A DNA stretch of 25,010 nucleotides from a virus, in UHGV virus genome UHGV-0271208; one strand, given 5' to 3'. Below, piece after piece: positions 1 to 25,010 of this stretch. How positions within the stretch are numbered: position 1 is the stretch's first letter; every line of letters starts with the position of its first letter. Position numbers and translations under genes: made by a program. The notes below the pieces were generated by a model that saw nothing but the letters and a program-made list of their open reading frames with translations, ran no database searches and was not told the origin of the DNA.

Positions 1-81
1 AAATACTCCCGCTATCAACTGACGCTAGTATAACGGAAGCAAATCATCTGCAATGCATTAAGCAGCAGGCAAATTGAGGAT

Positions 82-108
82 AAAAAAAACCCCCACATCA
101 TGTGGGGG
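82..108 (-). terminator. Putative rho-independent terminator (GC hairpin, T-run on minus strand)
   Basis: Inverted repeat CCCCCACATCATGTGGGGG at 90-108 preceded on the plus strand by an A-run at 82-89, which reads as hairpin then U-run on the minus strand. Confidence 0.5.
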
Positions 109-199
109 AAGACAGGGATGGTGAAGAAATCCGGCCAGTAACACAATGGAATAAAAGGATTTATTCTAATCTTCGTCTACATTTTGACTACACTTCGAC

Positions 200-225
200 A
201 AAAAAGGCCCCGTGCATTACGGGGC
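200..225 (-). terminator. Putative rho-independent terminator downstream of the 237-884 gene
   Basis: Stem GCCCCG/CGGGGC at 207-225 with a 7-nt loop; the A-run at 200-205 on the plus strand is a T-run after the hairpin on the minus strand, 12 nt past the stop of the minus-strand gene. Confidence 0.6.
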
Positions 226-236
226 TGCACACCGCA

Positions 237-884
237 TTACTTCCATCCACACGCTTTTTGAAGTGGCTTCAATGCCTCTGACAGACCAGCAACATCAAAT
301 GTCGCACTCACGGGACTTTCATTGTAAGGCGTGATCTGAGTAAACATTGAGTTAGCCTGGCTCAGCGCCTTGACGAACTCGATGACATTGCCACGATAAA
401 ATACCGATTTGGTATCGCTAGATATGTCCCATGTTTTCGTTTTTGCCTTCTGTTTATCCAAGCGAGATAACATCTGTGTTTCGTTCAACCCAAGATAGGT
501 ATCCCAATTGAGGAAAAGTTCTGTTTTTTTCTCGCGGCAAGTGATGTAAAGACTTGGTGTGATCGATTCCCCAAACTGCGACCGGAAAGAATCATTAGCA
601 GAAAGGCTAACATAAACATTCTCTGAATCATCCACGGGTGAAGTTTTCGTGGATACCTGCCATTTTCCAACACCTACTACTGGCTTAGCCTCTTCGGCTA
701 CTTTCGGTGGAAGAACCTTATCGTAACAAGCTAAACGCGCATCACTTTTTGCCTCGGATTGGCATTTCATTAATGCGTCATTGTTAATATCGGCTTTAAC
801 TGGTTCTACCGCATACGCTGTTGATACAGCAGAAGAGCAAAGCGCCATAGCAATGATTATCTTTTTCATACCATTACCTTTCAT
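237..884 (-). CDS. Secreted (periplasmic) protein of unknown function, cargo gene
   Basis: 215-aa ORF with an N-terminal signal peptide (MKKIIIAMALCSSAVSTAYA, likely signal-peptidase I cleavage after AYA). Its start overlaps the upstream gene stop as ATGA (translational coupling). No family recognised by eye. Confidence 0.7.
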   Translation of the reverse strand: MKGNGMKKIIIAMALCSSAVSTAYAVEPVKADINNDALMKCQSEAKSDARLACYDKVLPPKVAEEAKPVVGVGKWQVSTKTSPVDDSENVYVSLSANDSFRSQFGESITPSLYITCREKKTELFLNWDTYLGLNETQMLSRLDKQKAKTKTWDISSDTKSVFYRGNVIEFVKALSQANSMFTQITPYNESPVSATFDVAGLSEALKPLQKACGWK

Positions 885-1213
885 GATTTCGGGCGAGTAA
901 AGAAAACAAACATTCCGATAATGATATCGCCAATAACCCAGATGGTTCCCAGCATCATCATCCCCAGCCCCGTACCAATTGCGGCTCCGGCCCGTTCTGC
1001 GTCTGAGGCTGCGTTATTGATAACGTCACTACTGCCGCCAGCCCCGGCAAAAATGCAATAGATCATAAAGATGTTAAACAGGATAAATATCCACTTAACG
1101 ATCTTGCCAAAAAATGAGCGCTTCGGCTTTCTGACCTGATGGCCGCAAGACGGACATTTAAACGCTGAATCACTAATTTCTTTACTGCATTCCGGGCAGT
1201 TTACTAATGCCAT
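881..1213 (-). CDS. Zinc-ribbon membrane protein (CPxC...CPxC followed by two hydrophobic helices)
   Basis: ORF 881-1234; the likely start is the third ATG (1213), which has AGGA 4-5 nt upstream and gives MALVNCPECSKEISDSAFKCPSCGH, a zinc ribbon, followed by two predicted transmembrane segments. Start uncertain (1213, 1228 or 1234). Confidence 0.65.
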   Translation of the reverse strand: MALVNCPECSKEISDSAFKCPSCGHQVRKPKRSFFGKIVKWIFILFNIFMIYCIFAGAGGSSDVINNAASDAERAGAAIGTGLGMMMLGTIWVIGDIIIGMFVFFTRPKS

Positions 1214-1280
1214 TTTCCTAGACTCCATAGACATGGTTACATAACCGCCATAAAGCCTATCAGTTGATTTTGTTTGAATA

Positions 1281-1320
1281 AATAAAAATTAACCCGCCAT
1301 ATAGGCGGGTTATTTTAGAG
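1281..1320 (-). terminator. Putative terminator after ogr (bidirectional-looking hairpin)
   Basis: Stem AACCCGCC/GGCGGGTT at 1291-1311 with loop ATATA, flanked by AATAAAAATT (a T-run on the minus strand) immediately after the ogr stop. Confidence 0.6.
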
Positions 1321-1557
1321 TGCCAGCGATAACTGATCTTCGCCGTGGTGACTTCGTGGAAAAGCTTCTTGTGGCACCATCGCGCCGGGCGCTGGCTGGG
1401 TCTGGTTTAGTGAACCGTCTATTTCCGTCATGCTGGTGAAACAGTACCCGCACAACATATTTTGACACTGGTGATAGCTGCGTCGTACAAGCAAACTCAG
1501 CTCAACGCTGGTTCTGGTTTTTGCTATTGCACGGCAGCGAGGACAGCGCATTGCCAT
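1315..1557 (-). CDS. ogr: Ogr/Delta-family zinc-finger late-gene transcriptional activator
   Basis: 80-aa ORF with CPRC...RTS...YHQCQN.LCGYCF, matching the P2 Ogr / phage 186 B / P4 Delta signature (CPxC, RTS, YHQCQN, C..F). AGGAGG lies 7 nt upstream of the ATG. Confidence 0.85.
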   Translation of the reverse strand: MAMRCPRCRAIAKTRTSVELSLLVRRSYHQCQNMLCGYCFTSMTEIDGSLNQTQPAPGAMVPQEAFPRSHHGEDQLSLAL

Positions 1558-1605
1558 ACGCGGGCCTCCTTTCAGGACTGGTTAATATCAACGCAAGTAT
1601 AACGC

Positions 1606-2724
1606 TTAAGACGTTGAATCGTCACTCTCCGCTGTCCAGTCGTCGATTTTTACTTCCAGTTCCAGCGACGTGGTAAACCCTCCCCCGCCAATATCGTGAA
1701 CGCACCGCGTTATCGTCCAGTTCCCACTGTCGATCGTGGACTTAAAGCCGTAGACGCTGGCGGGCTGTTCCGGGTACAAATCTGCGCGGCCACGCGCCAG
1801 GGTGATGCTGAACGTAGCCGCACCGCGCTGCAACTCCCGCCACTTAGCCGCAGCGGCACGCTTCGCCGCCTTTTCCGTCTTGAAGGTTTTACGTATAACA
1901 AAAACGTTACCTTCGGCCCCGGCCAGATAATCACCCTCTTTTTTGCTGGATGCAGGCTCTTTCTTTTTGGCCTGGCTGGTTCGTCGCCTGCGGGTTGTTT
2001 TCTTCACGGTAGTGGATGGTTTCTTGCCAAAGTTGAGATCAAGCCAGTATGCAGTTACGCCCGTGTACGCGTCGCGGTCAGCTACGTTAAAGCTATGTTT
2101 ATCACCGCTTGACCGGACTATCTCGATCACCGGCAGCGGCTTGCCGCTCTGCGTCACTCCTTTGCCCGGCGTGATAAACAGAAGCATACCGTTTTTAATG
2201 GTTGCCACCGCGCCCAGCATTTCGGCCATGCGCGTTAAGAAGCTGATATCTGATTCACTCGTCTGATCGGCGTGGTCTATCTCAATCTTCGCCAGTTCTT
2301 CGCTGACACCCGCACGCAGATCGTAGCGACTGGCAATGCTGGCGACCACATCCCCCACGGTAATATCGTGCCAGCTATATTCCCTTTTCACGTTGAAGGT
2401 ATCGCGGAAATCTGCGCTTCTGGCACTGATCGTTAGCTGGTCAGGCGGGCCTGAATGACCTATCTCATCAACCGTATACACGCCCTTAAAAACCAATGGA
2501 TCATTATCCCAGCCCAGCGCCACCGATATCTTTGCGCCGCGTGGTGGTAATGCTACCTGCCCGTCTGCATCATCCAGAGTCAGATCCAGCGTGTCCGCTT
2601 CAAATCCCCGGTTATCTGTCAGGGAAAGAGAGATCAACCGGTTATCCAGCGCCGTAAGCTGATTACCTTCAATTTCAATACTGAACGCCGGGCGCGGCGA
2701 ATATCGGTTTTCTGTCGTGTCCAT
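1606..2724 (-). CDS. D: P2 gpD-like tail protein (phage late control D family, baseplate hub)
   Basis: 372-aa ORF with the gpD-family pattern (RLISLSLTDNRGFEADTLDLTLDD, ISARSADFR, an internal Lys/Arg-rich linker, C-terminal FTTSLELEV). Directly upstream of ogr on the same strand, as in P2. Confidence 0.85.
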   Translation of the reverse strand: MDTTENRYSPRPAFSIEIEGNQLTALDNRLISLSLTDNRGFEADTLDLTLDDADGQVALPPRGAKISVALGWDNDPLVFKGVYTVDEIGHSGPPDQLTISARSADFRDTFNVKREYSWHDITVGDVVASIASRYDLRAGVSEELAKIEIDHADQTSESDISFLTRMAEMLGAVATIKNGMLLFITPGKGVTQSGKPLPVIEIVRSSGDKHSFNVADRDAYTGVTAYWLDLNFGKKPSTTVKKTTRRRRTSQAKKKEPASSKKEGDYLAGAEGNVFVIRKTFKTEKAAKRAAAAKWRELQRGAATFSITLARGRADLYPEQPASVYGFKSTIDSGNWTITRCVHDIGGGGFTTSLELEVKIDDWTAESDDSTS

Positions 2725-2791
2725 ATCAACCCCTTCATCATGATGGGGTACATCGTCGCCACGCGCGCGCGCATGAACAACGCCCCGTCAT

Positions 2792-2809
2792 TGTTGCAGG
2801 TTGCTGACA
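2792..2809. promoter_or_regulatory. Ogr-type late-promoter dyad (TGT-N12-ACA) between divergent D and FI
   Basis: TGT at 2792-2794, a 12-nt spacer, ACA at 2807-2809. The centre is about 81 nt upstream of the FI ATG and about 76 nt upstream of the D ATG. A weak -10 candidate (TGATATT, 2846-2852) lies on the FI side. P2 late promoters carry TGT-N12-ACA centred near -55. Confidence 0.5.
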
Positions 2810-2881
2810 ACCCTTATTCATCGCATCAGCCTGCCATTGCCGCAATGATATTCGCAGTCATTAAACTGGCGAGGCAAATAC

Positions 2882-4075
2882 ATGGCCACTAACTACCATC
2901 ACGGTGTAACCGTCACGGAAACCACCGACCTTAGCACGATGATCACCGACATTGATTCGGCGGTGATCGGCGTTGTCTGCACCGCTGATGATGCGGACGA
3001 AACAGCGTTCCCGCTGGATACCCCTGTACTGATCACCCGCGTGGCTAACATGCTGGGCAAGGCAGGTAAAACCGGCACCCTGTTTACCACCTTGAAAGCG
3101 ATTTCAGACCAGACCAGCCCGCAAACCATTGTGATCCGCGTTGCTGATGCTGCAAATATCGAACCGCCAGAAGGCGGCACCGCACAGACACAGGATCAAC
3201 TGGTTATTGGCGGCACCGATGCAAACGGACGCTTTACCGGCATGTACGCGCTGCTGTCTGCCGAAATGCGCGTAGGCGTGCGCCCGCGTGTGCTGGCTGT
3301 TCCCGGTCTTGATACGGAAGCGGTGGCCGCACAACTCGGCGTCATTGCCGAAAAGCTGCGCGCGTTTGCTTACGTGGCAGCGAACGGCTGCAACAGCATC
3401 GCCGAAGTGAAGGAATACCGCGAACAGTTCTCCCAGCGTGAAATGATGGTTATCTGGCCTAATTTCATCTGCTACGACACCAACGCCGGAGCGAATGCCA
3501 CCGTGCCCGTGGGTGCCCATGCGGTTGGGATGCGCGCCAAAATCGACGCAACGCAGGGCTGGCATAAAACCATTTCCAACGTGCCCGTTAATAACGTGCT
3601 GGGGATGGATCGGGATATCTATTTCACGTTGCAGGGCACCGATACCGACGCCGACGAACTGAACGCAGCAGGCGTTACCACGCTGATCAAGCAGGACGGC
3701 TACCGCATCTGGGGATCGCGTACCTGCGACGCGGAAACGTATATCTTCGAAAGCTATACCCGAACCGCGCAGATCGTTGCGGATACCGTCGCCGAAGCAC
3801 ATTTCGCCTATGTTGATAAACCGCTTACCCCGTCGCTGGTAAAGGACATTGTGGACGGCATCAATAAGAAGCTGACCTCATATGTGACGGCTGGCAAGCT
3901 GCTGGGCGCCCGCTGCTGGTATGACCCGGAACCGAATACCTCGGAAACCCTGCGCAATGGTCAACTGACCATTAAGTACAACTACACCCCTGTTCCACCG
4001 CTGGAAAATCTCAGCCTGGTACAGGAGTTCACCGACGAATATTTCGCTACGTTTTCCAGCGCAGTGAATAACTAA
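2882..4075 (+). CDS. FI: Contractile tail sheath protein (P2 FI-like)
   Basis: 397-aa ORF; the N-terminus (YHHGV.V) and overall pattern resemble the P2 FI sheath family. GAGG SD 7 nt upstream. Followed by tube, E/E', T and U in P2 order. Confidence 0.9.
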   Translation: MATNYHHGVTVTETTDLSTMITDIDSAVIGVVCTADDADETAFPLDTPVLITRVANMLGKAGKTGTLFTTLKAISDQTSPQTIVIRVADAANIEPPEGGTAQTQDQLVIGGTDANGRFTGMYALLSAEMRVGVRPRVLAVPGLDTEAVAAQLGVIAEKLRAFAYVAANGCNSIAEVKEYREQFSQREMMVIWPNFICYDTNAGANATVPVGAHAVGMRAKIDATQGWHKTISNVPVNNVLGMDRDIYFTLQGTDTDADELNAAGVTTLIKQDGYRIWGSRTCDAETYIFESYTRTAQIVADTVAEAHFAYVDKPLTPSLVKDIVDGINKKLTSYVTAGKLLGARCWYDPEPNTSETLRNGQLTIKYNYTPVPPLENLSLVQEFTDEYFATFSSAVNN

Positions 4076-4087
4076 CCGGGGGCGCTT

Positions 4088-4603
4088 ATGGCACTGCCTA
4101 AGAAACTCAAATATTTCAATATGTTCTTTGACGGGGATAACTACTTCGGCATGGTGCCGGAAATCACCCCCGCCAAACTCACCAAAAAAACCGAAGACTA
4201 CCAGGCGGGCGGTATGCCGGGTTCGGTTGCGGTGGATCTGGGCTTCGACGCTGGCGCCCTGGATATGGATATCACGCTGGGCGGCATGGATGCAGGGCTA
4301 ATGAAAAAATGGGGCGTTACCACTGCGGACGGAATGCAGGTGCGCTTTGCTGGCTCTTACCAGGACGATGCGACCGGCGACGCCGTACCGTGCGAAATCC
4401 AGACGCGTGGCCGCTTCACTGAACTGGATCCCGGTTCGGCAAAGGTTGGGGATGATACTTCGCATAAGTACACCCTGAAAAACACCTATTACAAGCTGAC
4501 CATCAATAGCGAAGAAATTATCGAAATTGATGTGCTCAACATGATCTACAAAGTTGCCGGTGTGGATGTGCTGGAAAAACACCGCGCTAACATCGGCTTA
4601 TAA
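4088..4603 (+). CDS. FII: Tail tube protein (P2 FII-like)
   Basis: 171-aa ORF 12 nt after FI; size and position match P2 FII. Confidence 0.85.
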   Translation: MALPKKLKYFNMFFDGDNYFGMVPEITPAKLTKKTEDYQAGGMPGSVAVDLGFDAGALDMDITLGGMDAGLMKKWGVTTADGMQVRFAGSYQDDATGDAVPCEIQTRGRFTELDPGSAKVGDDTSHKYTLKNTYYKLTINSEEIIEIDVLNMIYKVAGVDVLEKHRANIGL

Positions 4604-4617
4604 GGAAACCCGGCACC

Positions 4618-4953
4618 ATGAGCAAGACCAAAGAAAACACCGTTATTCTTACCGCCCCTATTACGCGCGGTAAGACCAAAATCACCGAAGTGGCGATCAC
4701 TTCCGTGCTTAGACAGGCTGGATCACTGCGCGGCTTAAAAGCCTATGACGTGCTGACGTCCAACTATGACGCGCTGGTTATTCTGCTGCCCCGCGTTACC
4801 GCTCCGGCATTAACCGCCGATGAGATTGCCCGAATGGATACCTGGGATTTTTGCCAGTTAGCCAACGCGGTGGTTGATTTTTTGCAACCCTCTTCGGATC
4901 TGACCGCGACGGATACGGGCAACGAATCATCCGATGCCCCTGCGAACGCATAG
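4618..4953 (+). CDS. E: Tail assembly chaperone (P2 gpE-like), zero-frame product
   Basis: 111-aa ORF with AAGGAA SD; lies between the tube and tape-measure genes and contains a TTTTTTG slippery heptamer in frame. Confidence 0.8.
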   Translation: MSKTKENTVILTAPITRGKTKITEVAITSVLRQAGSLRGLKAYDVLTSNYDALVILLPRVTAPALTADEIARMDTWDFCQLANAVVDFLQPSSDLTATDTGNESSDAPANA

Positions 4954-5078
4954 AAGACCTGATGGCAGATATCGCCGTCATATTCCACTGGCGGCCGGTA
5001 GAGATGGACGCCATGACGGTACAGGAAATACTGTTATGGCGTGATCAGGCGGCTGCGCGCAGTGGTGGAGATCACTAA
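4618..5078 (+). CDS. E': E+E' fusion chaperone made by programmed -1 frameshift at T6G (4878-4884)
   Basis: The heptamer T_TTT_TTG sits in the zero frame at 4878-4884. The -1 frame stays open for 64 codons (ATLFGSDRDGYGQRIIRCPCERIEDLMADIAVIFHWRPVEMDAMTVQEILLWRDQAAARSGGDH) and ends at TAA 5076-5078, overlapping the T start as TAAATG. Same arrangement as the P2 E/E' frameshift. Confidence 0.6.
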
Positions 5079-8000
5079 ATGGCAGACCGCAATTTAAATA
5101 TCAGGGTGGCATTCAGCGCCCTGAATAATATGTCCCGCCCTGTCAACGCGGCGCGCCAGAGTGCCGCCGCGTTGGCGTCTCAAATCAATCAGACCAAAAC
5201 CAGCATTAAAGGGCTTGAGCGTCAGGCAACCAGCTTTGACCGCCTCACCGCAGCCAATAAAAAAACCACCGAACAACTGGCCCAGGCGAAAGAACAGGCC
5301 CGGCAAATGGCGGCGGCTTATGGCCCGTTACGCCAGCGCAGCGCCGAACAGGTTGCCGCCCTCAATCAGCAACGTGCAGCCATTCGCCAGTTAACCCAGC
5401 AGCAGAAAGGCGAGCAGACGCAGCTTAACCAGTTGCGCGCCAGCTTCTACAGCGAAGGCATTGCGATCAGCAGCGCCAGCCGGGCGACGGAACAGATCAA
5501 CCAGCGCACCGCGCAATACAACCGCCAGCTTGCCGAACAGCAGCGACGGCTTGACGCTGTTAACCAGGCGCAGGCCCGTTACAGCCGCGCCAAAGAAACC
5601 GGCGAAAAGATGATGAGCGGGGGGATGAAAACCGCCGCAGTAGGGGCGGCAACCCTCGCACCTGTCGCCGCTGCGGTTAAATCATACAGCAGCCTTGAAG
5701 ACGCCATGAAAGGCGTAGCCAAACAGGTAAACGGCTTGCGTGACGACAGCGGCAACCGCACCCCGCAGTATGAAGAAATGCAGCGGGCGATCATGGATGC
5801 CAGCGAAAAGCTACCAATGGCTAACGGCGCTGTTGACTATGCCGCCCTGGTCGAAGGTGGCGCGCGCATGGGCGTGGCAAACAGCGATGATCCGTGGGAA
5901 AAACAAAAAGCCGATCTGCTGGCTTTCGCCAGCATGGCGGCAAAAGCTTCGGTAGCCTTTGAACTGCCCGCCGATCAGCTTTCTGAAAGCCTCGGTAAGA
6001 TTGCCGGGCTGTATAAAATCCCTACCCAGAATATTGAACAGTTAGGCGACGCCATAAACTACCTGGACGATAACGCGAAGTCGAAAGGCTCCGATATTAT
6101 CGACGTGCTCCAGCGCGTTGGCGGACTTGCCAGCCAACTGGATTACAAGCAAGCCGCCGCGCTGGGTTCCACCTTCCTGACGCTTGGATCACCTGCCGAA
6201 GTTGCCGCCAGCGCAACCAATGCAATGGTGCGCGAACTATCGATCGCCACAGTACAAAGCGATAAATTTTTGGGTGCGCTGGATGAAATCGGCGTCAATG
6301 CTGAAAAAGTCCAGAAAAGCATGTCAGTGGACGCGATGGGCACGATCATTTCAGTGCTGGAAGCGTCCAAAAAACTTGCACCAGATAAGCAGGTAGCCAA
6401 CCTTACTCAGATTTTCGGTAAAGAGTTCGGCGATGATGCGCAGAAACTTGCGAACAACCTGCCCGAACTACGCCGCCAGATAGAACTGACGCAGGGCGCA
6501 GCCGCTAAAGGTTCCATGAATCGGGAATCTGATATCAATAAAGCGTCCCTTTCAGCTCAGTGGCAACTGACCAAAACCGGCGCGGTTAACGCATTGAGTT
6601 CAGCAGGGGAAACGCTCCGCGAACCGCTGATGGATATCATGCTTACCGTCAGTAAGGTGGTTGGCAGCGTCCGCCGCTGGGTTGAGGCAAACCCGGCTCT
6701 GGTTGGCTCAATCATGAAAGTCACCGCAGCCATAGGCGCGTTGCTGGTTGTCGTGGGTGGCCTGATGCTGACCATCGGCGCAGTGCTCGGCCCGATGGCA
6801 CTTGTTCGCCTCAGCTTCACCACGCTGGCTGGCTCCGGTGGGGTAACTCCCCTCATAGGCTCGCTGGGAAAATTATCCAGCACATTACGCGGGCTGATCC
6901 CCTCACTATCTGGCGTGGGCCGAAGTATTAAAGACTGGCCTGCCCTCTTCCGATCTGCTGCGTCTGGCATTACCCAATTTAGTAAACAAGCTATTGGCGG
7001 GTTAAACACAGCGTTAATGGCACTTTCACGCGGTGCTGTTGCTGCCGGACAGGGGCTATTTACCCTATTCACAAGGCCTATGACGGCTATAACCTGGCTT
7101 GGTAATGGCCTCAGAACTCTGGCGACCTCCGGTTTCGGCGCTTTGCTGAACGTTGGACGCACCGTAATGATGGCGTTGGGTGGCGGGTTATCATTACTTC
7201 TTAGCCCTATTGGAATACTGGTAATCGCTTTATCAGCAGCAGCGATCGCCGTTATTAAATTCTGGGAACCTATAAAAGCCTTTTTCACTGGCTTTTACAC
7301 CGGGTTAATGAGTGGCTTACAGCCTTTAACCTCAGCATTTAGTACAGCCTTTGCACCACTAGCCCCACTCTTTGACTCTATCGGTAATGCTGTCGGTGGC
7401 GTCTGGGAGTGGTTCACAAAACTATTCGAACCTATCCAGTTCTCCAGCGAAGCGCTAGCCTCCTGCACCAGTGCCGGGGAAACGTTCGGTAAGGTTGTAG
7501 GTAACGCTCTATCTGCATTAACACCAATAATCGAAGGAATAGCGCGCGGTATAGGATGGGTACTGGAAAAACTCGGCGCCATCCCCGACGCAACAAAAGC
7601 AGCGCAGCAAGCTGCGGAAAGTATGCACAAAGACCCTGTTGTCTGGGAGTGGGATCCGCAGCAAAAGAAAATGGTTAAAAAGGGTTGGAACTGGTCGCCG
7701 AAAGACGATCAGCAGAAGAAAACCAACCAGAAGCAACAGCAGGCCATTGACCAGCAGAAAAAGCAGGAAAGCTTAATTAACTCGCTCAAGGGCCCGGCCA
7801 ACATCGTGCCGAAGATGAGCAGCAGCCTGGATAAGATCGCCACCAATACCACGGAGAAGAAAGACGGCCCCGGCGAAATTGTCTTCAAGAATAAGCAGCC
7901 CTATATCCCGATCCGTGGCGGATATTCGGAACCGCTTAAGCAGGCACAGCGCCAGCTACCATCCCTTACCGATTGGGTGACGCAGCAGGCCGGATCGCTG

Positions 8001-8249: not shown

Positions 8250-8258
8250 GGCAATATC

Positions 8259-8708: not shown

Positions 8709-8710
8709 GA

Positions 8711-8738
8711 AAAGCGGGCCATTGCCCGCTTCGTCTTC
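8711..8738 (+). terminator. Possible terminator after U
   Basis: Stem AAGCGGGC/GCCCGCTT at 8712-8731 with loop CATT, followed by CGTCTTCC (a weak U-tract). Confidence 0.4.
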
Positions 8739-12649: not shown

Positions 12650-12660
12650 CAAGCATATCC

Positions 12661-15799: not shown

Positions 15800-18700
15800 T
15801 CAACTCTCGCGTAGTCATTCATCAACGGATCATCAATTGACAGTGGTACCGTGCGCATAACGCCCGGCTGAGGCGTGCTGACCTTTACGACAGTTCCCTG
15901 GCCTTTCGCCGAGTCTTTGGTGTGCTCTTCAATCCTGGCAAGCAATGAGGTCATCTGCGCAAACAGCCGCTTCGTTTCACCATCAAGTGAAACGGTATTA
16001 TCAGCCAACTGCATTGTCGGCTTGGCACCGGAACCGCCAAGGTCACTAATAACCTGCCCGTCTATCTGCATACGACCGGTTGGTTGCTGCAAATCGTTGG
16101 CGGCAGTCGTCACCTTGGACGTGGAGGCTGGTTCAGTCGCATTATTTTTCCGCATCCCCGGCGAGTTGCGGAGTTTATCGAATAGTCCATCAATCCCCAT
16201 TTGTGCGCCGAGTTGGTCAAAGTAACTTGAGTTGCTGGCCACCGGACGCGCCTCTTCAACTGGCATCGGAGTATCAACATACACATTGCCAGCTGCTGTT
16301 GCGGTCCCCTTCCCTCGTGCACGTTCTTCGAGCGTTCCCTGAACGACTTCCCGACGCATACCCCGGCCATTCATGAATTTGTTGACCAGATCGTTAACGC
16401 CAACAGCATTGCCGATTTTGTCTACCAGACCGCCTTTCTCAAACGGGCTATCACCAGGGGTAAACGCCAGGCCAGTAGACTGATCGATAACAGCGTTATC
16501 AGGCAGTGGTCCCCTCACTCCATATTGCGCCCCACCCTGTGCTCCTGCTCCAGGTGTATAGATTTCACCACCTAAATAGCGAGCACGATGAGTATTGACC
16601 TTGATCGCGTACTCACGGTTTTCTTTCGATAAGTCACCTGTGCCTTTTTTCCACTTATTGATAGTGCCAAACCCAGCGTTATATGCAGTGATGGCCTCGT
16701 TTAAGTCTCCATTGGCTTGCTTCAGATACTTGCTCATGAGAAGAGCCGCAGCTTCTGCCGATTTCACAGGATCAAACGATTCACCTTCAGCTAAGCCAGT
16801 CTCTTCACGAGCAATCCCCGTGAACTGAAACATTCCCAGAGCACCGGTTTGGGATTTTGCATACGGATTACCACCAGATTCAGTTGCAGCAATCGCGTAA
16901 AGAGTGCCTTCTGGAAGACCATATTTATTCTCTAGTTCAGCAAAATACGGAGCCAACTTATCGAGATTTGCCTTACCTTCAGATCCAAGACTTCCGACTT
17001 TTACATCCAAGCGGCCATTGTTGTAGGTATCCGCAGCTTTCTGAATGTCATTCCTGGTGCCAGTGGAATTAAGCGACGATGATGACGAGCTATTTTGACC
17101 AATAGCTTTATCAATTTTCTGCAACGCGCTATTGCCCGTTTCTACGGCATTTGCATTGATAATCTGATTCGCAGTTTCTTTAACTGTTTTATTGCTATCT
17201 TTCGCCGTGTCCAGTGCCGCATTTATCACGCGGGTAACAATATTAGTCTGTTTGGCATCGGATTCAGTTTTAGAATCAGATGTCTCCTGGTGGCTATTAA
17301 CCGGAGCTTTTAACTCTGGAGTGATTTCTTTCGCATTAGCCTCGCCGATCGGATTGGGTATTTTTGATACAATCATTGCCGCAGGGGTATTTTTAACGGC
17401 ATCAACCGCTGCATCTAATGCTTTACCAGGTAAATTTTTAACCCCATCCCAAATATTACCAGCCGCCTCTTTAATGTGTTTCCCTGGGTTCTTAATGAAA
17501 TCAATTGCACTATCAATTGCATCACTGAAAACCTGTTTCAGGTTATCAACAGTAAAGAAGTCTTTGATGGCATCCAGCTTTTCAAGCAGCTTATTAGATG
17601 TATCGCTAAACCATGCTGAAACAGCATCACCAATCTTTGCTGTGTAATCTTCGAACTTGGTAGAAATGGTGTCGCCAAGGTTAGAAATATATGTTTCTAA
17701 GTTGGTAATCCCACTATCAATGGCCTGGGCAATACTTTCCGTCGAAAATGATTGCAACATATTGCCGATATCCTCAAATCCAAGTGATTTGAGAACCTCA
17801 CCAATGGCGCTGCTAATACCAGATACCAGTCCCCCCATATCAAGAACATTGGCTAACGTATAAGCGGCTTTTTGCTGGAATGATGGATCTTGTCCTGATT
17901 TAAGCCCAAACGCTCGACGTTGCGCTTCTGTATCATTCCAACCGGTTACCGCATCATAAATACCTCCAGCCACTGTGCCGACTAAGGGAATTGCGCGTAA
18001 CGCCCCTTTACCAACTGCCTTTAATCCAAGTTTACCTGCTGCCCGGGCAGCCAAATCTCCACCTTCATGGGCGATAGTCTTCTTGCCACCACCGCGTAGC
18101 ATTCCTACAAGTTTCTTTGCCCCCAGAGCGCCAAAAGCGAGTGCTCCAGCTTTTTTCAGCATGCCACGCCCCATTAACAACGACGCGACGCCACCGGCCC
18201 CCTTCCCTAACAGGCTAAATAGTTTGGACAGCAAGCCGCCCTTCTTTTTCCCGGTGTTTTTGGCTATCTGATCAAGGGCGCTGAGAATCTTGTCATTGCC
18301 CTCTTTAATTTCGCTGGTCTGCTCCTGAAGTTCCTGAACTGTCCGTTTTTGGGTGTTAACCTGAACGACATCGGCACTATTTTGCGATTTACGCCTAAAA
18401 AAACCTTTTCTACGGCTGTTATCGTCATTGCCACGAATCACATCGGCAATAGACTTTCTGGCACCATTAAGCGATCCACCAACTTCTTTTGATATCCCGC
18501 CAAGCTCCTTCCCTGCTGCCCACAATGGACCAGCAACGGCATAACCTAACGCATCAACGGCACGAGTCTCTGAAGGGTTACCTATGCCTTCAGCTACTTT
18601 TGACAGTTTTTTTAATAAACCTGATTCAGCATTTAGACGCTCATCATCCTCTTTGCGCCTGGCCTTTTCAGCACGTTCAGCACGGGCATCTTCCGCTGCG

Positions 18701-19485
18701 GCCTTACTCCCTGACTTTCCAATAAAACGACCACGCGCATCGCGTTGGTTTTGGCTTTTTTGCGCACCGCCTTTTTGATCGAACATTTCGCGAGCGTGTT
18801 CGGCTGCTTCGGTCCGTTGTGCCTTTATATCCTCTGGTATAGCCTTCCTGCGTCGTTTTTTACCCTTTGGTGTAGTTGATTTGGCCTGCTGTTCCTGTTG
18901 AGCAATGCCCTCCTGAACTACACGAGAAACGTCCCCTAAATTAAGCCGTTTCATTGCGTCAACAATAGGGTCTACTGATGGCGCATTGGCCACAAAGTCT
19001 GGCCGGGAATTTTCGATTGTTCGATTTAATGCCGACACACTGCGAGATACTGGGTCAACCGTTGCAACGCGTTCCCCTTTCAAATCACGAGCGAGTTTGA
19101 CCGTTTCTAACCGCTGTGCTTTAACATCCTCTGTTATTGCCTCTCTTCGTCTATTTGGGGGATTGTGCGCTGTTGGTGCAGCCTGCTGTTCACGGTTAGT
19201 GACTTTGTCCTCCCGTATACGAGAAACGTCCCCTAAATTAAGCCGTTTTATTGCGTCAACAATAGGGTCCACTGATGGCGCATTGGTCACAAAGTCAGGA
19301 CGTGAATTTTCGATTGTGCGATTTAATGCCGACACACTGCGAGATACTGGGTCAACAGTTGCAACTCGTTCCCCTTTCAAATCTTCAACAGCTTCCCGAA
19401 TACCTGCAAGCTCTTCCAGCTCTTTCGCGCTGGCGGTTTCAACTGTCCTTATAACATCGTCAATATTGGCGTTTTTTCTTTCCAT
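15796..19485 (-). CDS. sit: Sit-like structural injection transglycosylase / tape-measure-like protein with SLT domain
   Basis: 1229-aa ORF with a lytic-transglycosylase motif (LPEGTLYAIAATESGGNPYAKSQTGALGMFQFTGIAREETGL), Gly/Ala/Lys-rich hydrophobic segments and an N-terminal tandem duplication. Size and neighbours match P1 sit as recalled. Confidence 0.8.
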   Translation of the reverse strand: MERKNANIDDVIRTVETASAKELEELAGIREAVEDLKGERVATVDPVSRSVSALNRTIENSRPDFVTNAPSVDPIVDAIKRLNLGDVSRIREDKVTNREQQAAPTAHNPPNRRREAITEDVKAQRLETVKLARDLKGERVATVDPVSRSVSALNRTIENSRPDFVANAPSVDPIVDAMKRLNLGDVSRVVQEGIAQQEQQAKSTTPKGKKRRRKAIPEDIKAQRTEAAEHAREMFDQKGGAQKSQNQRDARGRFIGKSGSKAAAEDARAERAEKARRKEDDERLNAESGLLKKLSKVAEGIGNPSETRAVDALGYAVAGPLWAAGKELGGISKEVGGSLNGARKSIADVIRGNDDNSRRKGFFRRKSQNSADVVQVNTQKRTVQELQEQTSEIKEGNDKILSALDQIAKNTGKKKGGLLSKLFSLLGKGAGGVASLLMGRGMLKKAGALAFGALGAKKLVGMLRGGGKKTIAHEGGDLAARAAGKLGLKAVGKGALRAIPLVGTVAGGIYDAVTGWNDTEAQRRAFGLKSGQDPSFQQKAAYTLANVLDMGGLVSGISSAIGEVLKSLGFEDIGNMLQSFSTESIAQAIDSGITNLETYISNLGDTISTKFEDYTAKIGDAVSAWFSDTSNKLLEKLDAIKDFFTVDNLKQVFSDAIDSAIDFIKNPGKHIKEAAGNIWDGVKNLPGKALDAAVDAVKNTPAAMIVSKIPNPIGEANAKEITPELKAPVNSHQETSDSKTESDAKQTNIVTRVINAALDTAKDSNKTVKETANQIINANAVETGNSALQKIDKAIGQNSSSSSSLNSTGTRNDIQKAADTYNNGRLDVKVGSLGSEGKANLDKLAPYFAELENKYGLPEGTLYAIAATESGGNPYAKSQTGALGMFQFTGIAREETGLAEGESFDPVKSAEAAALLMSKYLKQANGDLNEAITAYNAGFGTINKWKKGTGDLSKENREYAIKVNTHRARYLGGEIYTPGAGAQGGAQYGVRGPLPDNAVIDQSTGLAFTPGDSPFEKGGLVDKIGNAVGVNDLVNKFMNGRGMRREVVQGTLEERARGKGTATAAGNVYVDTPMPVEEARPVASNSSYFDQLGAQMGIDGLFDKLRNSPGMRKNNATEPASTSKVTTAANDLQQPTGRMQIDGQVISDLGGSGAKPTMQLADNTVSLDGETKRLFAQMTSLLARIEEHTKDSAKGQGTVVKVSTPQPGVMRTVPLSIDDPLMNDYARVD
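18922..19383. repeat. Intragenic direct repeat: two 165-bp copies (18922-19086, 19219-19383), about 93% identical, period 297 bp
   Basis: Compared base by base: about 11 mismatches in 165. Because 297 bp is 99 codons, the repeat is in frame and encodes the duplicated peptide RVATVDPVSRSVSALNRTIENSRPDFV.NAPSVDPIVDA.KRLNLGDVSR. Confidence 0.85.
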
Positions 19486-19566
19486 GATCTTATCGCCTAC
19501 CGTTTCGGTTTAAGTTTTTCTTCCAGTTTCTCCAACAGGAAAAACGCATAGGATTCAGTAAGCCTT

Positions 19567-20448
19567 TCAGCGTCCTGAATCGGTATACCCCCATACAAAA
19601 CCAGGTTGGACACTAAGGTCTGATAGCTTTTCAATCCCCACCTGTGGAATGAAGTCGGTAGCCCGAAAGGGCACCCACAGACGGGTATATGCACCCTCTG
19701 TGGACTCCTTTTTATCCTGATTTGGGCATTTATGCGGCGGGAGACGAAGACGCATTTCACCTTTATCGATGTAGCACGGTAAACCATGTTCGAGCTTTTC
19801 ATGAGCCAGTCGGATGTGTGCCGCCAGCTTCATAAATTCAGTATCAATGGCCATCCGTTTAATCGTTTCATAACGACGCTCAGCCTGATCTTCACGAGTA
19901 CCACTAACATCGTTATAAAGCTCACACTGATAAGCGAATTCCCAAAAACGCAAATCAACGATCGCTTCTTTGAATTCCGCGTCGTCTTCAGGTGGCAATG
20001 CTGCACGGCGCATCTCCAGCATTTCCATTGCCCAACCATCAAGCGGCACGATACGCCATTGATAAGGTACTCCCTCTACAGGCACCTCAATATCGTCAAT
20101 GAACGGTTCCACTTCCAGGACCTGGATATCTTCAGCCAGAGCATTCATATCGCAATCGTAATAATGCTCTTTACCGCAATGTTTACAGGTGTAGGTGAAT
20201 GTCTCGACCGGTGTTTCACGGGAGCCGGTAAATATCCACCATAACGCGGTAATCCGGTCCTGCGCCGTCCATGTCAGGGGATCATGTTTCGCGGGTTCAG
20301 CCAGCAAGGCTTTTAAATACGCCGTTGTCTGTTGTTCTTGTTCCTCCGGTGTTATCGAGTTGAAACGCATCGCATCAGCAATATTTGGCTGACGGAACTG
20401 GATCAATTCAGTTGGCCGCGATGGTAGCGGGAAAAGGGGTAAAAGCAT
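19567..20448 (-). CDS. Hypothetical phage structural/morphogenesis protein (position of P1 pmgB)
   Basis: 293-aa ORF just upstream of the Sit-like gene; contains CKHCGKEHYYDCDM, a possible metal-binding motif. Confidence 0.6.
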   Translation of the reverse strand: MLLPLFPLPSRPTELIQFRQPNIADAMRFNSITPEEQEQQTTAYLKALLAEPAKHDPLTWTAQDRITALWWIFTGSRETPVETFTYTCKHCGKEHYYDCDMNALAEDIQVLEVEPFIDDIEVPVEGVPYQWRIVPLDGWAMEMLEMRRAALPPEDDAEFKEAIVDLRFWEFAYQCELYNDVSGTREDQAERRYETIKRMAIDTEFMKLAAHIRLAHEKLEHGLPCYIDKGEMRLRLPPHKCPNQDKKESTEGAYTRLWVPFRATDFIPQVGIEKLSDLSVQPGFVWGYTDSGR

Positions 20449-20462
20449 CCTTGCTCCTTAAT

Positions 20463-21074
20463 TCAAAGAGAAAAACTAAAGCCCAGAAGGGAAGCCAAAG
20501 AACTTGAGGATTGGTTAAACGTGCTGTGCAATGCGAAGGTCATTGGGAATGACTTAAATTCAGTAACCTGATCTCGCGCATAGGTGACATCGCCGGTAGT
20601 GACCGGGAATACCGTCATCTCATTTTCCAGTTTGGTTATGCCGGAAGACAGCAACCGATAAATACGCACATTGAGCAAATATTTAGACGGTATATTCCCG
20701 GTACCGTCCGGATTGATCACCCGACTTTTTGCCGTCTTAAACCAGTCCAAAACGAGGCCATCAACGGTATCCCTGACCATCATTGTTATCTGCCCAGGCG
20801 AACGCTCCGTTGGCTGAAGGATATTCCCTCCGCCGATTTTAATCGTTTCATATTCGATGCTGTAATCGTGGTAGGTAATGTCTTTAGCAAAGAAGTCTGC
20901 CCCCTCCAGACCATCAACTTCGACAGAGAACTGCCATCCTTGCGCGAACAGCATTTTGTTCATGATGATTGACGTCAGCTTGCCAACTTCCCGCTCACCA
21001 ACGCCGGAGCCAAATAATGTCGTCGTTAATGCCGAAGATACATAAGACTTTACTGAAGCAACATTAAGCCCCAT
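20463..21074 (-). CDS. Putative tail tube protein (position of P1 tub)
   Basis: 203-aa ORF, 14 nt upstream of the previous gene. Assignment is by gene order. Confidence 0.55.
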   Translation of the reverse strand: MGLNVASVKSYVSSALTTTLFGSGVGEREVGKLTSIIMNKMLFAQGWQFSVEVDGLEGADFFAKDITYHDYSIEYETIKIGGGNILQPTERSPGQITMMVRDTVDGLVLDWFKTAKSRVINPDGTGNIPSKYLLNVRIYRLLSSGITKLENEMTVFPVTTGDVTYARDQVTEFKSFPMTFALHSTFNQSSSSLASLLGFSFSL

Positions 21075-21084
21075 ATCAGCCTCC

Positions 21085-21675
<591 letters not shown>

Positions 21676-21709
21676 TTACCCGATTCTACGAGTAGTCATT
21701 TGTGACAGG

Positions 21710-22186
21710 TCATTTTGCGCGCTTCAGACAGCCATCTTCAGGTGCCGCGTTGAAAAGCTCTGCGGCCTTACGTAGCGTAAATGTTGCTATTTTTTTTCCG
21801 TCTACGTATGCATCGAATGTTTTAACTTCCATATCAGGGGTATCTGACCAAAAACCATACCAGTAACTATCACCCACAGAGGAACCGATAGAACTGATAG
21901 GATATTCATCATCACCAACTTTCAGCGTTATTTGTTCTTTTTTAGCATCAAATGACTCACCGCCAGGTTCTGTTTTCATGAGAGTGAGTAGTCGTGTTCC
22001 TACTTGATTGGGATCCGTATTATTAAATCCAACATCGCACTCAAATGTAAGCGTATAATTATCTTTGCTGGAAACAGCATAAGAACGAACACCATGAGTC
22101 TCGCCGGTTGACCATTTGCTTACATTTGCCATTGATGAAAATGGAGTAAGCAAAGCAAGAATTAGAAAAAATCGTTTGATGCGCAT
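21710..22186 (-). CDS. Secreted protein, sim-region-like (superimmunity candidate)
   Basis: 158-aa ORF with a signal peptide (MRIKRFFLILALLTPFSSMA); AT-rich upstream region; sits where the P1 sim genes lie relative to pmgC. Confidence 0.6.
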   Translation of the reverse strand: MRIKRFFLILALLTPFSSMANVSKWSTGETHGVRSYAVSSKDNYTLTFECDVGFNNTDPNQVGTRLLTLMKTEPGGESFDAKKEQITLKVGDDEYPISSIGSSVGDSYWYGFWSDTPDMEVKTFDAYVDGKKIATFTLRKAAELFNAAPEDGCLKRAK

Positions 22187-22247
22187 TAATTTATCTCCTT
22201 TGGATATTAACGATTATCAATATTTTAATTGGTTATCCATAATATAT

Positions 22248-22895
22248 TTACCATTCATAGGGTAAATTAAGCGCTTTTAAACCTTGCTGAAAGGTATTAA
22301 GTGAGCCGTTCTTTTGTTGTTCCATTTGCTCGCGTGCCGCTTTCTCATACTGCTCCATCCGTTGGTTATACTCTTGCAATTCCTCTGGTGAGAGGTTTCC
22401 CATTGGGGAGTTTGTACCCGGCCCCCTGGCCCGCTCTTCAAGCGTACCCTGCACGTTTTGATGGCGCATTCCTGGGGCATTTCTGATTGAGTCAATGCCA
22501 TTTCTTCCAACGTCTTCTTTATTAACGGCATTGCTCGCCACCAGCACACCCCAGCTAGGAATAGCAAAATCAGGAGCGGTTTCGCATGCCTTTACCATAT
22601 AATCGAAAGAGCTTCGATTGATCTCGTTTGCGTCGGGATTTAACAGGCGAGAATATTGATATTTAGCATTTTCGTTGGTTGCGACTTTATACAGTTCTTG
22701 CTGCACCATCGCTTCAGAAAGTTTAAGGCGTTTCATATCTGACAGTAACTTCTTGCGCATGGATTCGTCTTGACTGACAGCAAAGCCGTAAACGTGCCCA
22801 AGGTATTTCGTATAATCGGTACAAATCTCCTTTACGCTTGATGCTGCATTAACAGTCTCAGCCATAAATAATAACGGTAGTAATAGTTTTCTCAT
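22248..22895 (-). CDS. Secreted protein, sim-region-like, sharing a motif with the Sit-like protein
   Basis: ORF 22248-22922; the likely start is ATG 22895 (GGTGAGG SD), giving a signal peptide MRKLLLPLLFMAETVNA. Its C-terminal part carries NAPGMRHQNVQGTLEERARGPGT, homologous to GRGMRREVVQGTLEERARGKGT in the Sit-like protein. Confidence 0.65.
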   Translation of the reverse strand: MRKLLLPLLFMAETVNAASSVKEICTDYTKYLGHVYGFAVSQDESMRKKLLSDMKRLKLSEAMVQQELYKVATNENAKYQYSRLLNPDANEINRSSFDYMVKACETAPDFAIPSWGVLVASNAVNKEDVGRNGIDSIRNAPGMRHQNVQGTLEERARGPGTNSPMGNLSPEELQEYNQRMEQYEKAAREQMEQQKNGSLNTFQQGLKALNLPYEW

Positions 22896-22991
22896 TATAA
22901 CCTCACCTGCCTTATAACTCATTTAGGGTACATATTTTCGCCTTTAAAAAAAAGAGGTTATTAGATCCAATTGTGTATTTATTAAGCATGT

Positions 22992-23008
22992 AATGCTCTA
23001 ATAAATTT
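22992..23008 (+). promoter_or_regulatory. P1 C1-repressor operator-like 17-mer (Op51-like)
   Basis: AATGCTCTAATAAATTT is one mismatch from the recalled C1 operator consensus ATTGCTCTAATAAATTT; it lies upstream of the c4/icd/ant region. Confidence 0.6.
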
Positions 23009-23204
23009 GTATTTTTAAGTCGCGAATGCTATCTTTTCGCATCATATTGACCTTTTAATCGTTCAGGCTTATAGTTCCGCCGTCGTAGCAAATTCTGCGA
23101 CCGGGTTTAGCAGCCTGAATGTTAGTGCGGACAACCGCAGATATCCGATATTGCGGTATTTTTGTGTCCGTAAAACCGCGTTACGCCCAAATTATGGTGG
23201 GGCG

Positions 23205-23275
23205 TGATGGGGAGGCTTCGGCCTGCTGGTTTCACTAACGCCAGTCTGCTAACCCCGTCACGTCCTGCCACCTGT
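23205..23275 (+). ncRNA. c4: c4-like antisense RNA (ImmI-type repressor of icd/ant translation); boundaries approximate
   Basis: CACTAAC (23233-23239) and CTGCTAAC (23246-23253) are complementary to GTTTAGCAG / GTTAGTG pairs at 23105-23127 and 23274-23311, the second overlapping the icd-like SD. This mirrors the P1 c4 a'/b' versus a1/b1 and a2/b2 layout. Confidence 0.4.
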
Positions 23276-23322
23276 TTAGCAGCGGGTAGCAGGTTGTTAA
23301 ACCTGTTAGTGAGGCCGTAACT

Positions 23323-23544
23323 ATGGTTAATGCCAATCCTTGCGCACGCCAAGAATTCATCTGGCGTTTCTATTCCTGTAAAAAACACCACTATCACTTC
23401 GTTATCGCAGCAACAGAAGACGAAGCACGCTCTCAATTGCCTGATGGCCCCTGCATTTTTACTGCCCGTTTTTCAACTAACTCGCGCAATTCACTTAGTT
23501 ACTGGAGCCTCCCCTTCTCTGCCGACGTTCAGGGGGGTTTATGA
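23323..23544 (+). CDS. icd: Icd-like small protein (73 aa) translationally coupled to ant
   Basis: 73-aa ORF with GAGG SD 8 nt upstream; its stop overlaps the ant start as ATGA. P1 icd is also 73 codons and overlaps ant. Confidence 0.5.
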   Translation: MVNANPCARQEFIWRFYSCKKHHYHFVIAATEDEARSQLPDGPCIFTARFSTNSRNSLSYWSLPFSADVQGGL

Positions 23545-24575
23545 AAACACCTCTCGTCACCCGTAATGAAATAGCCGAAGCGATCGCCTTGCATACAATC
23601 TGTATGCCGACACGGGAGATCCCCGGCGCAATTGCCAACTATTTCATGATAACCAGGCGTTTTTATACCCGAACAGATAAGGCTGTGATCAACAGGCTAC
23701 TGATAGCCGAGATCAGGGATTATTTGATTGAACAAGGACGTCTACGTTACGCAACAGTGGCAGCAGAAATGAGAAAGGAGGCACATAGAATGACCGGTAA
23801 TAATTTAAATGTTGAAAAACCAGCACCTGTTGCTTCAGCTACGCCAGCACCAGCCCTGAATGTCATCCCCAACACCGGAGACACAATCGACAGCCAAACA
23901 TTGTTGAAGATGGTCAATGAGGCACGGAAATTATGTAGCGAAAAACCAGTTCGCAACAATGATTTCATTGCCAGAGTTAAGGATGAGCTTGAAGGAGAAA
24001 CCTACGAAATTTTCGTAGGTCAAAAAAACGGCGCAGAAATAGATATTATAACCATGACCTACAAACAAGCCCTGCGAGTTGCCGCGCGCGAGTCAAAAGC
24101 GGTCCGCCGTTCGCTGATCGACAAACTGGAAGAATTACAGCAGGCAAACTCCCCTACCCCATCGATCCCCCAAACATTACCAGAAGCCCTACGCCTGGCT
24201 GCCGAGTTGGCAGAACAGAAAATGCATCTGGAACAACAGCTGGTGGCCGCAGCACCTAAAGTCGATTTTGCCGACCGGGTATCAGTGGCTAATGGAATCC
24301 TGATCGGTAACTTTGCAAAGGTCGTTGGACTTAAGCAAAACGCCCTTTTCTCATGGTTGCGCCAGAACGGCATTCTCATGGCTTTTGGTGCGCGCAAAAA
24401 CGTACCGCGCCAGCAGTACATTAACGCCGGGTATTTCACGGTGAAAGAAGTGGTGCTGGATGATGAAAATGGCTATCAGATACGGCTGACGCCACAATTA
24501 ACGGGTAAAGGCCAGCAGTGGTTAACTCGCAAGCTACTTGATGCTGGTTTGTTAAAACCAGTAGCAATAGGTTAA
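23541..24575 (+). CDS. ant: Phage antirepressor (Ant-like)
   Basis: 344-aa ORF whose C-terminal region (FADRVSVANGILIGNFAKVVGL...RKNVPRQQYINAGYFTVKEV...QIRLTPQLTGKGQQWLTRKL) resembles antirepressor C-terminal domains; sits downstream of the operator and c4-like elements. Confidence 0.8.
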   Translation: MKTPLVTRNEIAEAIALHTICMPTREIPGAIANYFMITRRFYTRTDKAVINRLLIAEIRDYLIEQGRLRYATVAAEMRKEAHRMTGNNLNVEKPAPVASATPAPALNVIPNTGDTIDSQTLLKMVNEARKLCSEKPVRNNDFIARVKDELEGETYEIFVGQKNGAEIDIITMTYKQALRVAARESKAVRRSLIDKLEELQQANSPTPSIPQTLPEALRLAAELAEQKMHLEQQLVAAAPKVDFADRVSVANGILIGNFAKVVGLKQNALFSWLRQNGILMAFGARKNVPRQQYINAGYFTVKEVVLDDENGYQIRLTPQLTGKGQQWLTRKLLDAGLLKPVAIG

Positions 24576-24581
24576 CAAAAG

Positions 24582-24614
24582 AAAAAAACCTGCCAGCAAA
24601 CTGGCAGGTTTCTG
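24582..24614 (+). terminator. Rho-independent terminator after ant
   Basis: Stem CCTGCCAG/CTGGCAGG at 24589-24608 with loop CAAA, followed by TTTCTG. Confidence 0.65.
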
Positions 24615-24653
24615 AGCAGATCGTCCAACCCGATCTGGATCGAGTCAGAAAAA

Positions 24654-24670
24654 TTTGCTCTAATAAATTT
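24654..24670 (+). promoter_or_regulatory. P1 C1-repressor operator-like 17-mer (Op53-like) upstream of kilA-like gene
   Basis: TTTGCTCTAATAAATTT is one mismatch from the consensus and 70 nt upstream of the ATG at 24740. The flanking approx. 30 bp is also similar to the 22992 site. Confidence 0.6.
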
Positions 24671-24739
24671 CGTTTTCTAAGTGCAAAGAATCACCATTTC
24701 GAGCTGGTGATTGAAGGTTGATGCAAATTTGGAGAAAAA

Positions 24740-25010
24740 ATGCAACAAACATTCAATGCGGATATGAATATATCAAACCTTCATCAAAATGTCGATCCTT
24801 CAACCACTCTGCCCGTTATTTGTGGTGTTGAAATTACGACCGACCGCGCTGGCCGTTACAACCTTAATGCTCTACACAGAGCGAGCGGACTCGGTGCCCA
24901 TAAAGCGCCAGCTCAATGGCTAAGAACGCTGTCAGCCAAACAGCTCATCGAAGAGCTTGAAAAAGAAACTATGCAGAATTGCATAGTTTCGTTCGAAGGC
25001 CGTGGCGGCG
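24740..25010 (+). CDS. kilA: KilA-N domain protein, 5' partial (runs off the window)
   Basis: ATG at 24740 with GGAGAAAAAA upstream; open to the window end, encoding MQQTFNADMNISNLHQNVDPSTTLPVICGVEITTDRAGRYNLNALHRASGLGAHKAPAQWLRTLSAKQLIEELEKE, which looks like a KilA-N domain. Confidence 0.65.
   Translation, partial: MQQTFNADMNISNLHQNVDPSTTLPVICGVEITTDRAGRYNLNALHRASGLGAHKAPAQWLRTLSAKQLIEELEKETMQNCIVSFEGRGG

Follow-up and report, generated by a model that had tools for sequence, protein, structure and literature searches.

UHGV-0271208 is a viral genome record of 25,010 nucleotides (nt), analysed here over its whole length (the window), in which genes of a P2-like tail module stand beside genes of the phage-plasmid P1. 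Sequence comparison shows that the window is not one hybrid phage: an ordinary P2-like prophage of the Escherichia coli chromosome supplies its left arm, and an ordinary P1-like phage-plasmid the rest. The two elements meet inside a single tail-fibre open reading frame (ORF), and the two proposed tail-length determinants and two tube genes of the window therefore belong to two different virions instead of a single hybrid tail. Either an assembly error or a single recombination event produced the join. Linkage by the assembler is the explanation that we favour, at about an even chance, while a genuine cointegrate formed by homologous recombination in the shared fibre module is somewhat less probable and still a serious contender. 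A preliminary description had proposed a hybrid phage or phage-plasmid, adjacent prophage remnants or an assembly join; only the last of these is still a probable reading, together with the cointegrate, which had not been considered there.

Two elements meet inside one tail-fibre gene

Megablast of the whole window against phage and plasmid collections returned no record that spans it. P1 and P1-like elements covered ~11.2–25 kb at 95–98% identity. Among the 5,426 complete E. coli genomes that formed the search set, chromosomal prophages covered 7753–10585, and P1-like plasmids covered the window from 9469 or from 10593 rightwards. Each half also has relatives without a single difference. Window 1–10489 shows 0 mismatches to L008 (GCA_026413045.1), a chromosomal E. 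coli contig with a P2-like prophage adjoining fieF; the metagenome contigs L012 and L013, as far as they extend, also match it with 0 mismatches. Complete genomes hold prophages 98–99% identical to this arm, NZ_CM129865.1 (L001) among them. Window 10668–25010 shows 0 mismatches to two independently assembled P1-like plasmid contigs, L014 (90.8 kb, GCA_040693585.1) and L015 (ENA ERZ783810).

Sliding identity and in-register alignments placed the switch between the two inside the fibre ORF. The features at and around the join are as follows (lengths of proteins in amino acids, aa).

8815–9368, minus strand: decayed invertible fibre segment of the P2-like prophage, with a truncated invertase (8815–9141) and a 76-aa ORF
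9525–9935, minus strand: tail-fibre assembly chaperone of the P2-prophage type (PHROG 188)
9935–12649, minus strand: chimeric tail-fibre ORF of 904 aa (Pfam Phage_fiber_2 and Gly_rich_2)
10455–10489: J1, a 35-nt block common to both parents, where P2 type gives way to P1 type (from alignments)
10490–10667, minus strand: bridge of 178 nt, the last 40-aa repeat unit of the P1-type S gene, identical to L004 and L035
10668–10732: J2, a 65-nt block common to the first and last S repeat units (from alignments)
11277–11298, plus strand: cixR, exact match to P1 cixR, the sole cix site in the window and without a partner

The N-terminal part of the fibre ORF is P1 S, and its Gly-rich C-terminal domain, the last third of the gene, is of the P2-prophage H type. 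The window equals L008 up to 10489 and equals the S genes of L004 and L035 over 10455–10732; the bridge between J1 and J2 differs both from L008 and from the in-register unit of L014. At J2, the window lacks ~1.7 kb of repeats that the closest full-length S has (P0021 of L035, 1475 aa), and the S genes of L014 and L015 likewise extend well past this point. The two joints are only ~180 nt apart and lie together within ~280 nt. H and S share ~1.1 kb at ~90% identity (9459–10585), which contains seven exact runs of 34, 35, 56, 59, 48, 62 and 35 nt; J1 is the last of these and sits at the N-terminal edge of the Gly-rich receptor-binding module. Beyond this module the relatives carry the rest of the prophage's own fibre gene H (659 aa), then I, J, W, V and the head genes, whereas the window is P1-like from 10490. 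In the plasmid lineage, the closest full-length S is followed by a chaperone, holins and darA.

Among the 120 best-scoring matches, S proteins of P1-like plasmids measured 1024–1555 aa and varied in 40-aa steps. Their length classes (P0001–P0120) included 1395, 1435, 1475, 1515 and 1555 aa as well as 1434, 1474 and 1514 aa, a spacing that points to frequent gain and loss of the 40-aa repeat unit. Tandem Repeats Finder reported nothing on the S gene, and its 120-nt repeat structure became visible only by comparison with other S genes.

The 8.7–10.5-kb stretch left of J1 belongs to the prophage and not to P1, as argued by the absence of mismatches to prophage contigs and by the P2-type contexts of the exact chaperone protein. 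That protein was found on 21 contigs; every one that reaches past 10489 carries a P2-type fibre, and none carries P1 genes. The stretch 8815–9368 is identical in L008, L012 and L013 and is annotated as a recombinase pseudogene in L001. The preliminary description had read everything from 8815 rightwards as the P1 map, and this order is borne out only from inside S onwards, at 95–96% DNA identity; from 8815 to the fibre tip the DNA is that of the prophage. Its 'cin' (8815–9141) is a 108-aa remnant with an HTH_7 (helix-turn-helix) match only, and both this remnant and its 'U' (9525–9935), together with the C-terminal third of S, show 0 mismatches to L008, L012 and L013. The boundary had been drawn ~1–1.7 kb too far left, with cin, U and the fibre tip given to the wrong parent. 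Junctions at 8700–9530 or 2725–2881 were rejected, since many P2-like prophage contigs carry each of these stretches uninterrupted and without a difference.

The join was found in this record only

In the complete genomes, the region 7500–12500 was spanned at ≥80% coverage in 0 of 5,426 cases. The reciprocal junction, with P1 lysis genes beside P2-like I-J-W-V, was likewise found in none of them using a 5.3-kb query across which gaps of up to ~3.1 kb could be joined. For window 10440–10800, neither complete genomes nor plasmids gave a full-length match at 100%. At the protein level, the exact hybrid S was absent from an exact-protein index, and in a search of 5.8 billion protein clusters none of the 120 best-scoring matches aligned over more than 77% of it. 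Low-power DNA-pattern scans found the J1 patterns (111 nt and 64 nt) in none of the GTDB representative genomes, JGI metagenomes and IMG/VR, and the J2 pattern, scanned in viral contigs with the same low power, gave nothing. The exact T, Sit and chaperone proteins were also traced to their genomic surroundings, none of which held an independent copy of the join.

Origin of the join

We infer, at roughly even probability, that the linkage of the prophage arm to the plasmid was made by the assembler. Both elements would have been present in the same sample; the contig path would have passed from the prophage into the shared fibre module and out of it into the plasmid, and the assembler would also have collapsed the 40-aa tandem repeats of S on the way. 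Each flank matches a separately assembled sequence without a difference, and the exact repeat at the switch is common to both, as expected of a repeat-mediated assembly chimera. Both novel joints coincide with exact parental repeats, of 35 nt (J1) and 65 nt (J2). J1 uses the last exact run of homology, which is where a path through a collapsed repeat is expected to leave it. The contigs of at least seven other assemblies of this prophage end within the homology (window positions 9888–10286), and the contigs L014 and L015 end among the S repeats, which makes this a proven trouble spot for assembly. Our estimate rests on these four points: a singleton join, two repeat-coincident joints, an exit at the end of the homology and a location that breaks other assemblies. 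Possibly the chimeric fibre gene itself is real, as a conversion patch on the plasmid, and only its linkage to the prophage arm is false.

Several observations weigh against an assembler origin. At 35 nt, J1 falls below the final k that the most widely used assemblers reach (55–127), so that a de Bruijn path would need a small-k or bubble-collapsing assembler, or else a plasmid parent closer to the window than L004 and L035. P1-type bases at 10442, 10445 and 10454 occur in 7/7 of the P1-like S genes examined, and at 10429 in 5/7. The reading frame is kept across J1 and a natural H breakpoint falls in the same interval, which makes recombination within a cell plausible at this place. Finally, positive controls for the DNA-pattern scans in IMG/VR returned 0 and 1 matches, so the power of these scans to detect further copies was low.

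P2-type H and P1-type S exchange their C-terminal fibre module in nature, and mosaics were observed in both directions. The closed P1-like plasmid L002 (NZ_CP158349.1) carries at 7117–7507 a 390-nt P2-type H insert within S, a natural H/S mosaic. Conversely, five P2-like H proteins of 659 aa (P0158, P0161, P0170, P0171 and P0174) have a P1-type patch in the Gly-rich domain that starts in the J1 interval and lie in ordinary P2 context. One of them, P0170 (L037, 8001–9980), is part of a canonical P2 prophage in which a TIR-domain gene also stands between S and V.

The cointegrate, to which we give a little over one chance in three, supposes that a single RecA-type crossover, between S of a circular P1-like plasmid and H of a resident P2-like prophage, inserted the plasmid in the chromosome. 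The prophage would thereby be split and two reciprocal chimeric fibre genes made, of which the window would show one junction. Preservation of the frame and the position of the switch within a block of identity agree with such a crossover. The J1 block is longer than the minimal length usually quoted for RecA-mediated recombination, and assembler errors typically involve repeats longer than 35 nt. The left end of the window is chromosomal, and P1-like and chromosomal DNA are contiguous in the window as given; the second junction would fall outside it. That H and S recombine in nature is documented by L002 and by the patched P2-like H genes. S repeat number also varies naturally in 40-aa steps, so J2 could predate the join. 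P1-like elements integrated beside resident prophages have been reported, with a cause still 'to be clarified' (Pfeifer and Rocha 2024, PMC10879196), and three chromosomal P1-like elements (L031, L032 and L034) were also seen here.

Against a cointegrate stands, first, the singleton status of the join, with both the junction and its reciprocal in 0 of the 5,426 complete genomes and the hybrid S protein without an exact or near-complete counterpart in the searches given above. Second, the visible borders of chromosomal P1-like elements do not lie in the fibre gene; they were found near yjjJ (PK-F-10122), at IS26/Tn3 (NCCP 15734) and near ref/cre (ST2747). Third, J2 would have to have arisen as a further recent event, in a lineage whose zero-mismatch relatives have a much longer S. 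Fourth, the crossover would have used the last and one of the shortest of the identity runs, and a cointegrate flanked by direct repeats would be unstable. The integrated element of ST2747 (L034, NZ_CP007392.1, 2171125–2220000) has one border at a truncated ref near cre and c1, and its repB-like gene and parAB are kept.

A P1-like plasmid carrying the prophage arm from the fieF side (a 'P1-prime' recombinant) is improbable, and so is a deletion derivative of the cointegrate. This reading draws on the same junction evidence as the cointegrate, and the region left of fieF lies outside the window; no P1 or plasmid record with a P2-type arm was seen, however, and the exact chaperone stands beside P1 genes in 0 of 21 contigs.

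Marginally less probable still is one functional hybrid phage or phage-plasmid that combines the sheath, tube and ruler of P2 with the baseplate, fibre and Sit of P1. This was the only option that the preliminary description had counted as new biology and it is, in our judgement, effectively refuted. The juxtaposition alone speaks for it. Each half, however, shows 0 mismatches to a complete, separate element, and the left end is host DNA adjoining fieF. Redundant parts are kept, namely two tube genes and two candidate rulers, and the P2 arm is without its own baseplate and head only through the cut at the fibre gene. Nor does the combination recur in the phage, plasmid and complete-genome collections searched or among the best protein matches. 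Adjacent prophage remnants do not describe the window either, as a single tail-fibre gene joins the two elements in frame.

Site-specific recombination by a Cin/Pin-family invertase between cix sites of both elements has next to no probability and was ruled out by the coordinates, by the presence of one cix site only and by the truncation of the invertase: although remains of invertible fibre segments exist in both elements, the switch at 10455–10489 lies ~790 nt from the sole cix site, no cix-type inverted repeat was found in 8700–11500 (the only inverted pair there is one of 18 nt at 9463–9606), and in place of an intact Cin with a C segment bounded by cixL and cixR the window has a 108-aa HTH-only prophage remnant.

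The P2-like prophage arm

The gene content given for the P2 and P1 parts in the preliminary description was largely correct, even though its boundary and interpretation were not. For the P2-type genes ogr, D, FI, FII, E/E', T and U, assigned there to 1315–8708, the Pfam families agree throughout; these calls were read from proteins at the same positions in loci that are 99–100% identical to the window in DNA.

1–236: chromosomal flank, base 1 lying directly upstream of the fieF start codon in relatives
237–1234, minus strand: two cargo genes at the prophage end (VasI-like, 215 aa; zinc-ribbon, 117 aa)
1315–1557, minus strand: P2-type ogr (Ogr_Delta)
1606–2724, minus strand: P2-type D (Phage_GPD)
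2882–4075, plus strand: FI, sheath (Phage_sheath)
4088–4603, plus strand: FII, tube (Phage_tube)
4618–5078, plus strand: E and a GpE-family ORF (P2_GpE)
5079–8249, plus strand: T, tape measure, 1056 aa (PHROG 28 and PF10145; PhageMin_Tail in matching loci)
8259–8708, plus strand: U (P2_GpU)

Base 1 of the window aligns to position 4923 of L008, in which fieF occupies 4020–4922 on the minus strand, and window 1–206 is 95% identical to the fieF-adjacent spacer of L001. A start exactly at the fieF start-codon boundary suggests that the source record was trimmed at the edge of the host gene, as provirus trimming would do. Among the cargo proteins, the VasI-like one matches PF11319 (E = 2.7e-13) and the other gives weak zinc-ribbon matches; they fall in PHROG 1848 and 6586, both families of unknown function, and PADLOC gave no match on either gene. 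NZ_CM129865.1 carries a different gene, of 237 aa, at this position, which indicates a variable cargo slot at the prophage end.

The exact T protein occurs in 42 indexed blocks, and every context shown is a fieF-adjacent P2-like prophage of this kind. Gene order in NZ_CM129865.1 runs from the fieF side through ogr and D on the minus strand, FI-FII-E-T-U on the plus strand, a recombinase pseudogene, fibre-chaperone remnants, the fibre, I, J, W, V and the head genes. The window likewise has FI-U on the plus strand and D, ogr, the fibre and the chaperone on the minus strand, and thus departs from the canonical P2 order H-G-FI-FII-E-T-U-D-ogr on one strand. The inverted F operon is common to L001 and L005–L013, and L037 has the canonical order. 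The inverted arrangement of FI-U is kept in all close relatives, and the truncated invertase adjoins U. T measures 1056 aa in the window versus 974 aa in NZ_CM129865.1 and L019, and the middle of the gene (6830–7752) does not align, so ruler length varies within one prophage lineage.

The P1-like phage-plasmid arm

Colinearity with P1 extends over 11202–21703 and 22756–25010 at 95–96% identity and takes in Sc, R, 16, bplA, pmgA, sit, pmgB, tub, pmgC and c4-icd-ant-kilA. Gene names on this side were taken from the P1 record.

12661–21651, minus strand: R, 16, bplA, pmgA, sit, pmgB, tub and pmgC, 95–96% identical to P1, with 0 mismatches to L014 and L015
15796–19485, minus strand: sit, 1229 aa, with an SLT domain; 'putative tail ruler' in the P1 record
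21704–22755, minus strand: two non-P1 genes in the place of simC and simB, encoding a 158-aa and a 215/224-aa protein, without alignment to P1
23069–25010, plus strand: P1 ImmI region and the start of kilA, 94.9% identical to P1
23190–23275, plus strand: C4 RNA, with the c4 targets a1b1 (Rfam RF01695, 70 bits; RF03163, 55.5 bits)
23323–23544, plus strand: icd (P1 annotation)
23541–24575, plus strand: ant (P1 annotation)
~24740 onwards, plus strand: kilA (P1 annotation), cut by the window end

The window had been credited with two tape-measure-class genes and one sheath/tube pair. T is borne out as a tape measure. Sit carries an SLT domain and otherwise matches families of unknown function, with no tape-measure family match in Pfam and PHROG searches. 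There are two tube genes, FII and tub. Within sit, a pair of ~168-nt repeats (18919–19086 and 19216–19383, 94% identical) constitutes an internal duplication relative to P1, whose Sit has 1140 aa.

A P1 sim locus had also been proposed. Alignment to P1 together with Pfam and PHROG searches revealed no sim superimmunity locus at 21704–22755: simC and simB are absent, and two unrelated genes occupy their place. The 158-aa protein belongs to PHROG 3429, and its counterpart in L014 and L035 has a precomputed Pfam match to PF27224 (YfjT); the 215/224-aa protein belongs to PHROG 3933 and has a weak PTP-like match. The same replacement genes are present in L014, L015 and L035. The plasmid genes for replication and partition (repA, parAB), c1 and cre-lox fall outside the window, and the zero-mismatch relative L014 runs on into repL on its 90.8-kb contig.

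Significance

As it stands, the window is chiefly a warning. The module of fibre tip and chaperone that P2-like prophages and P1-like plasmids share is a natural recombination hot spot and also a site of assembly breaks and misjoins, and apparent 'hybrid phages' that switch there therefore need proof at the level of reads. If the linkage is true, the window would give a base-resolution view of a phage-plasmid entering the chromosome via a resident prophage and exchanging host-range determinants, a modest but useful addition to what is known of transitions between phage-plasmids and prophages. A true cointegrate would explain in concrete terms how P1-like elements come to be integrated beside prophages, for which reports give no mechanism, and would swap the receptor-binding tips of two unrelated myoviruses in one step. 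It could also be an intermediate that produces the natural fibre conversion patches.

Comparison with known systems

The left arm resembles the fieF-adjacent P2-like (Peduoviridae) prophages of E. coli in insertion site, inverted F operon and invertase remnant; in those prophages the fibre continues as H with I, J, W, V and the head genes, whereas in the window it continues as P1 S. The P2-like Salmonella phages SEN4 and SEN5 share 93.6% DNA identity with window 79–8906.

The right arm resembles P1, P7 and P1-like phage-plasmids (Punavirus); it is colinear with P1 over 11202–25010 at 95–96% except for 21704–22755, and it has the C4/icd/ant immunity region. It differs from P1 in the replacement of simC and simB and in the longer Sit (1229 versus 1140 aa), and it is without Cin, cixL and the alternative Sv'/U'. 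On the fibre-tip side it adjoins the prophage and not the lysis and dar genes of P1. Compared with close P1-like relatives, its S is short (904 versus 1024–1555 aa).

If the linkage is real, the window would represent the same phenomenon as the integrated P1-like phage-plasmids already described, with P1-like DNA contiguous with a resident prophage (PMC10879196). The integrated elements that we inspected have their visible borders outside the fibre gene. Crossovers within that gene are not known from earlier work, and the one in the window is putative.

Haggard-Ljungquist, Halling and Calendar (1992, J Bacteriol 174:1462) reportedly described how P2, P1 and Mu exchange tail-fibre modules horizontally. 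The join in the window likewise falls in the C-terminal fibre-plus-chaperone module common to H and S. The known exchanges are patches or module swaps within one element, whereas the window has a different element on each side of its breakpoint.

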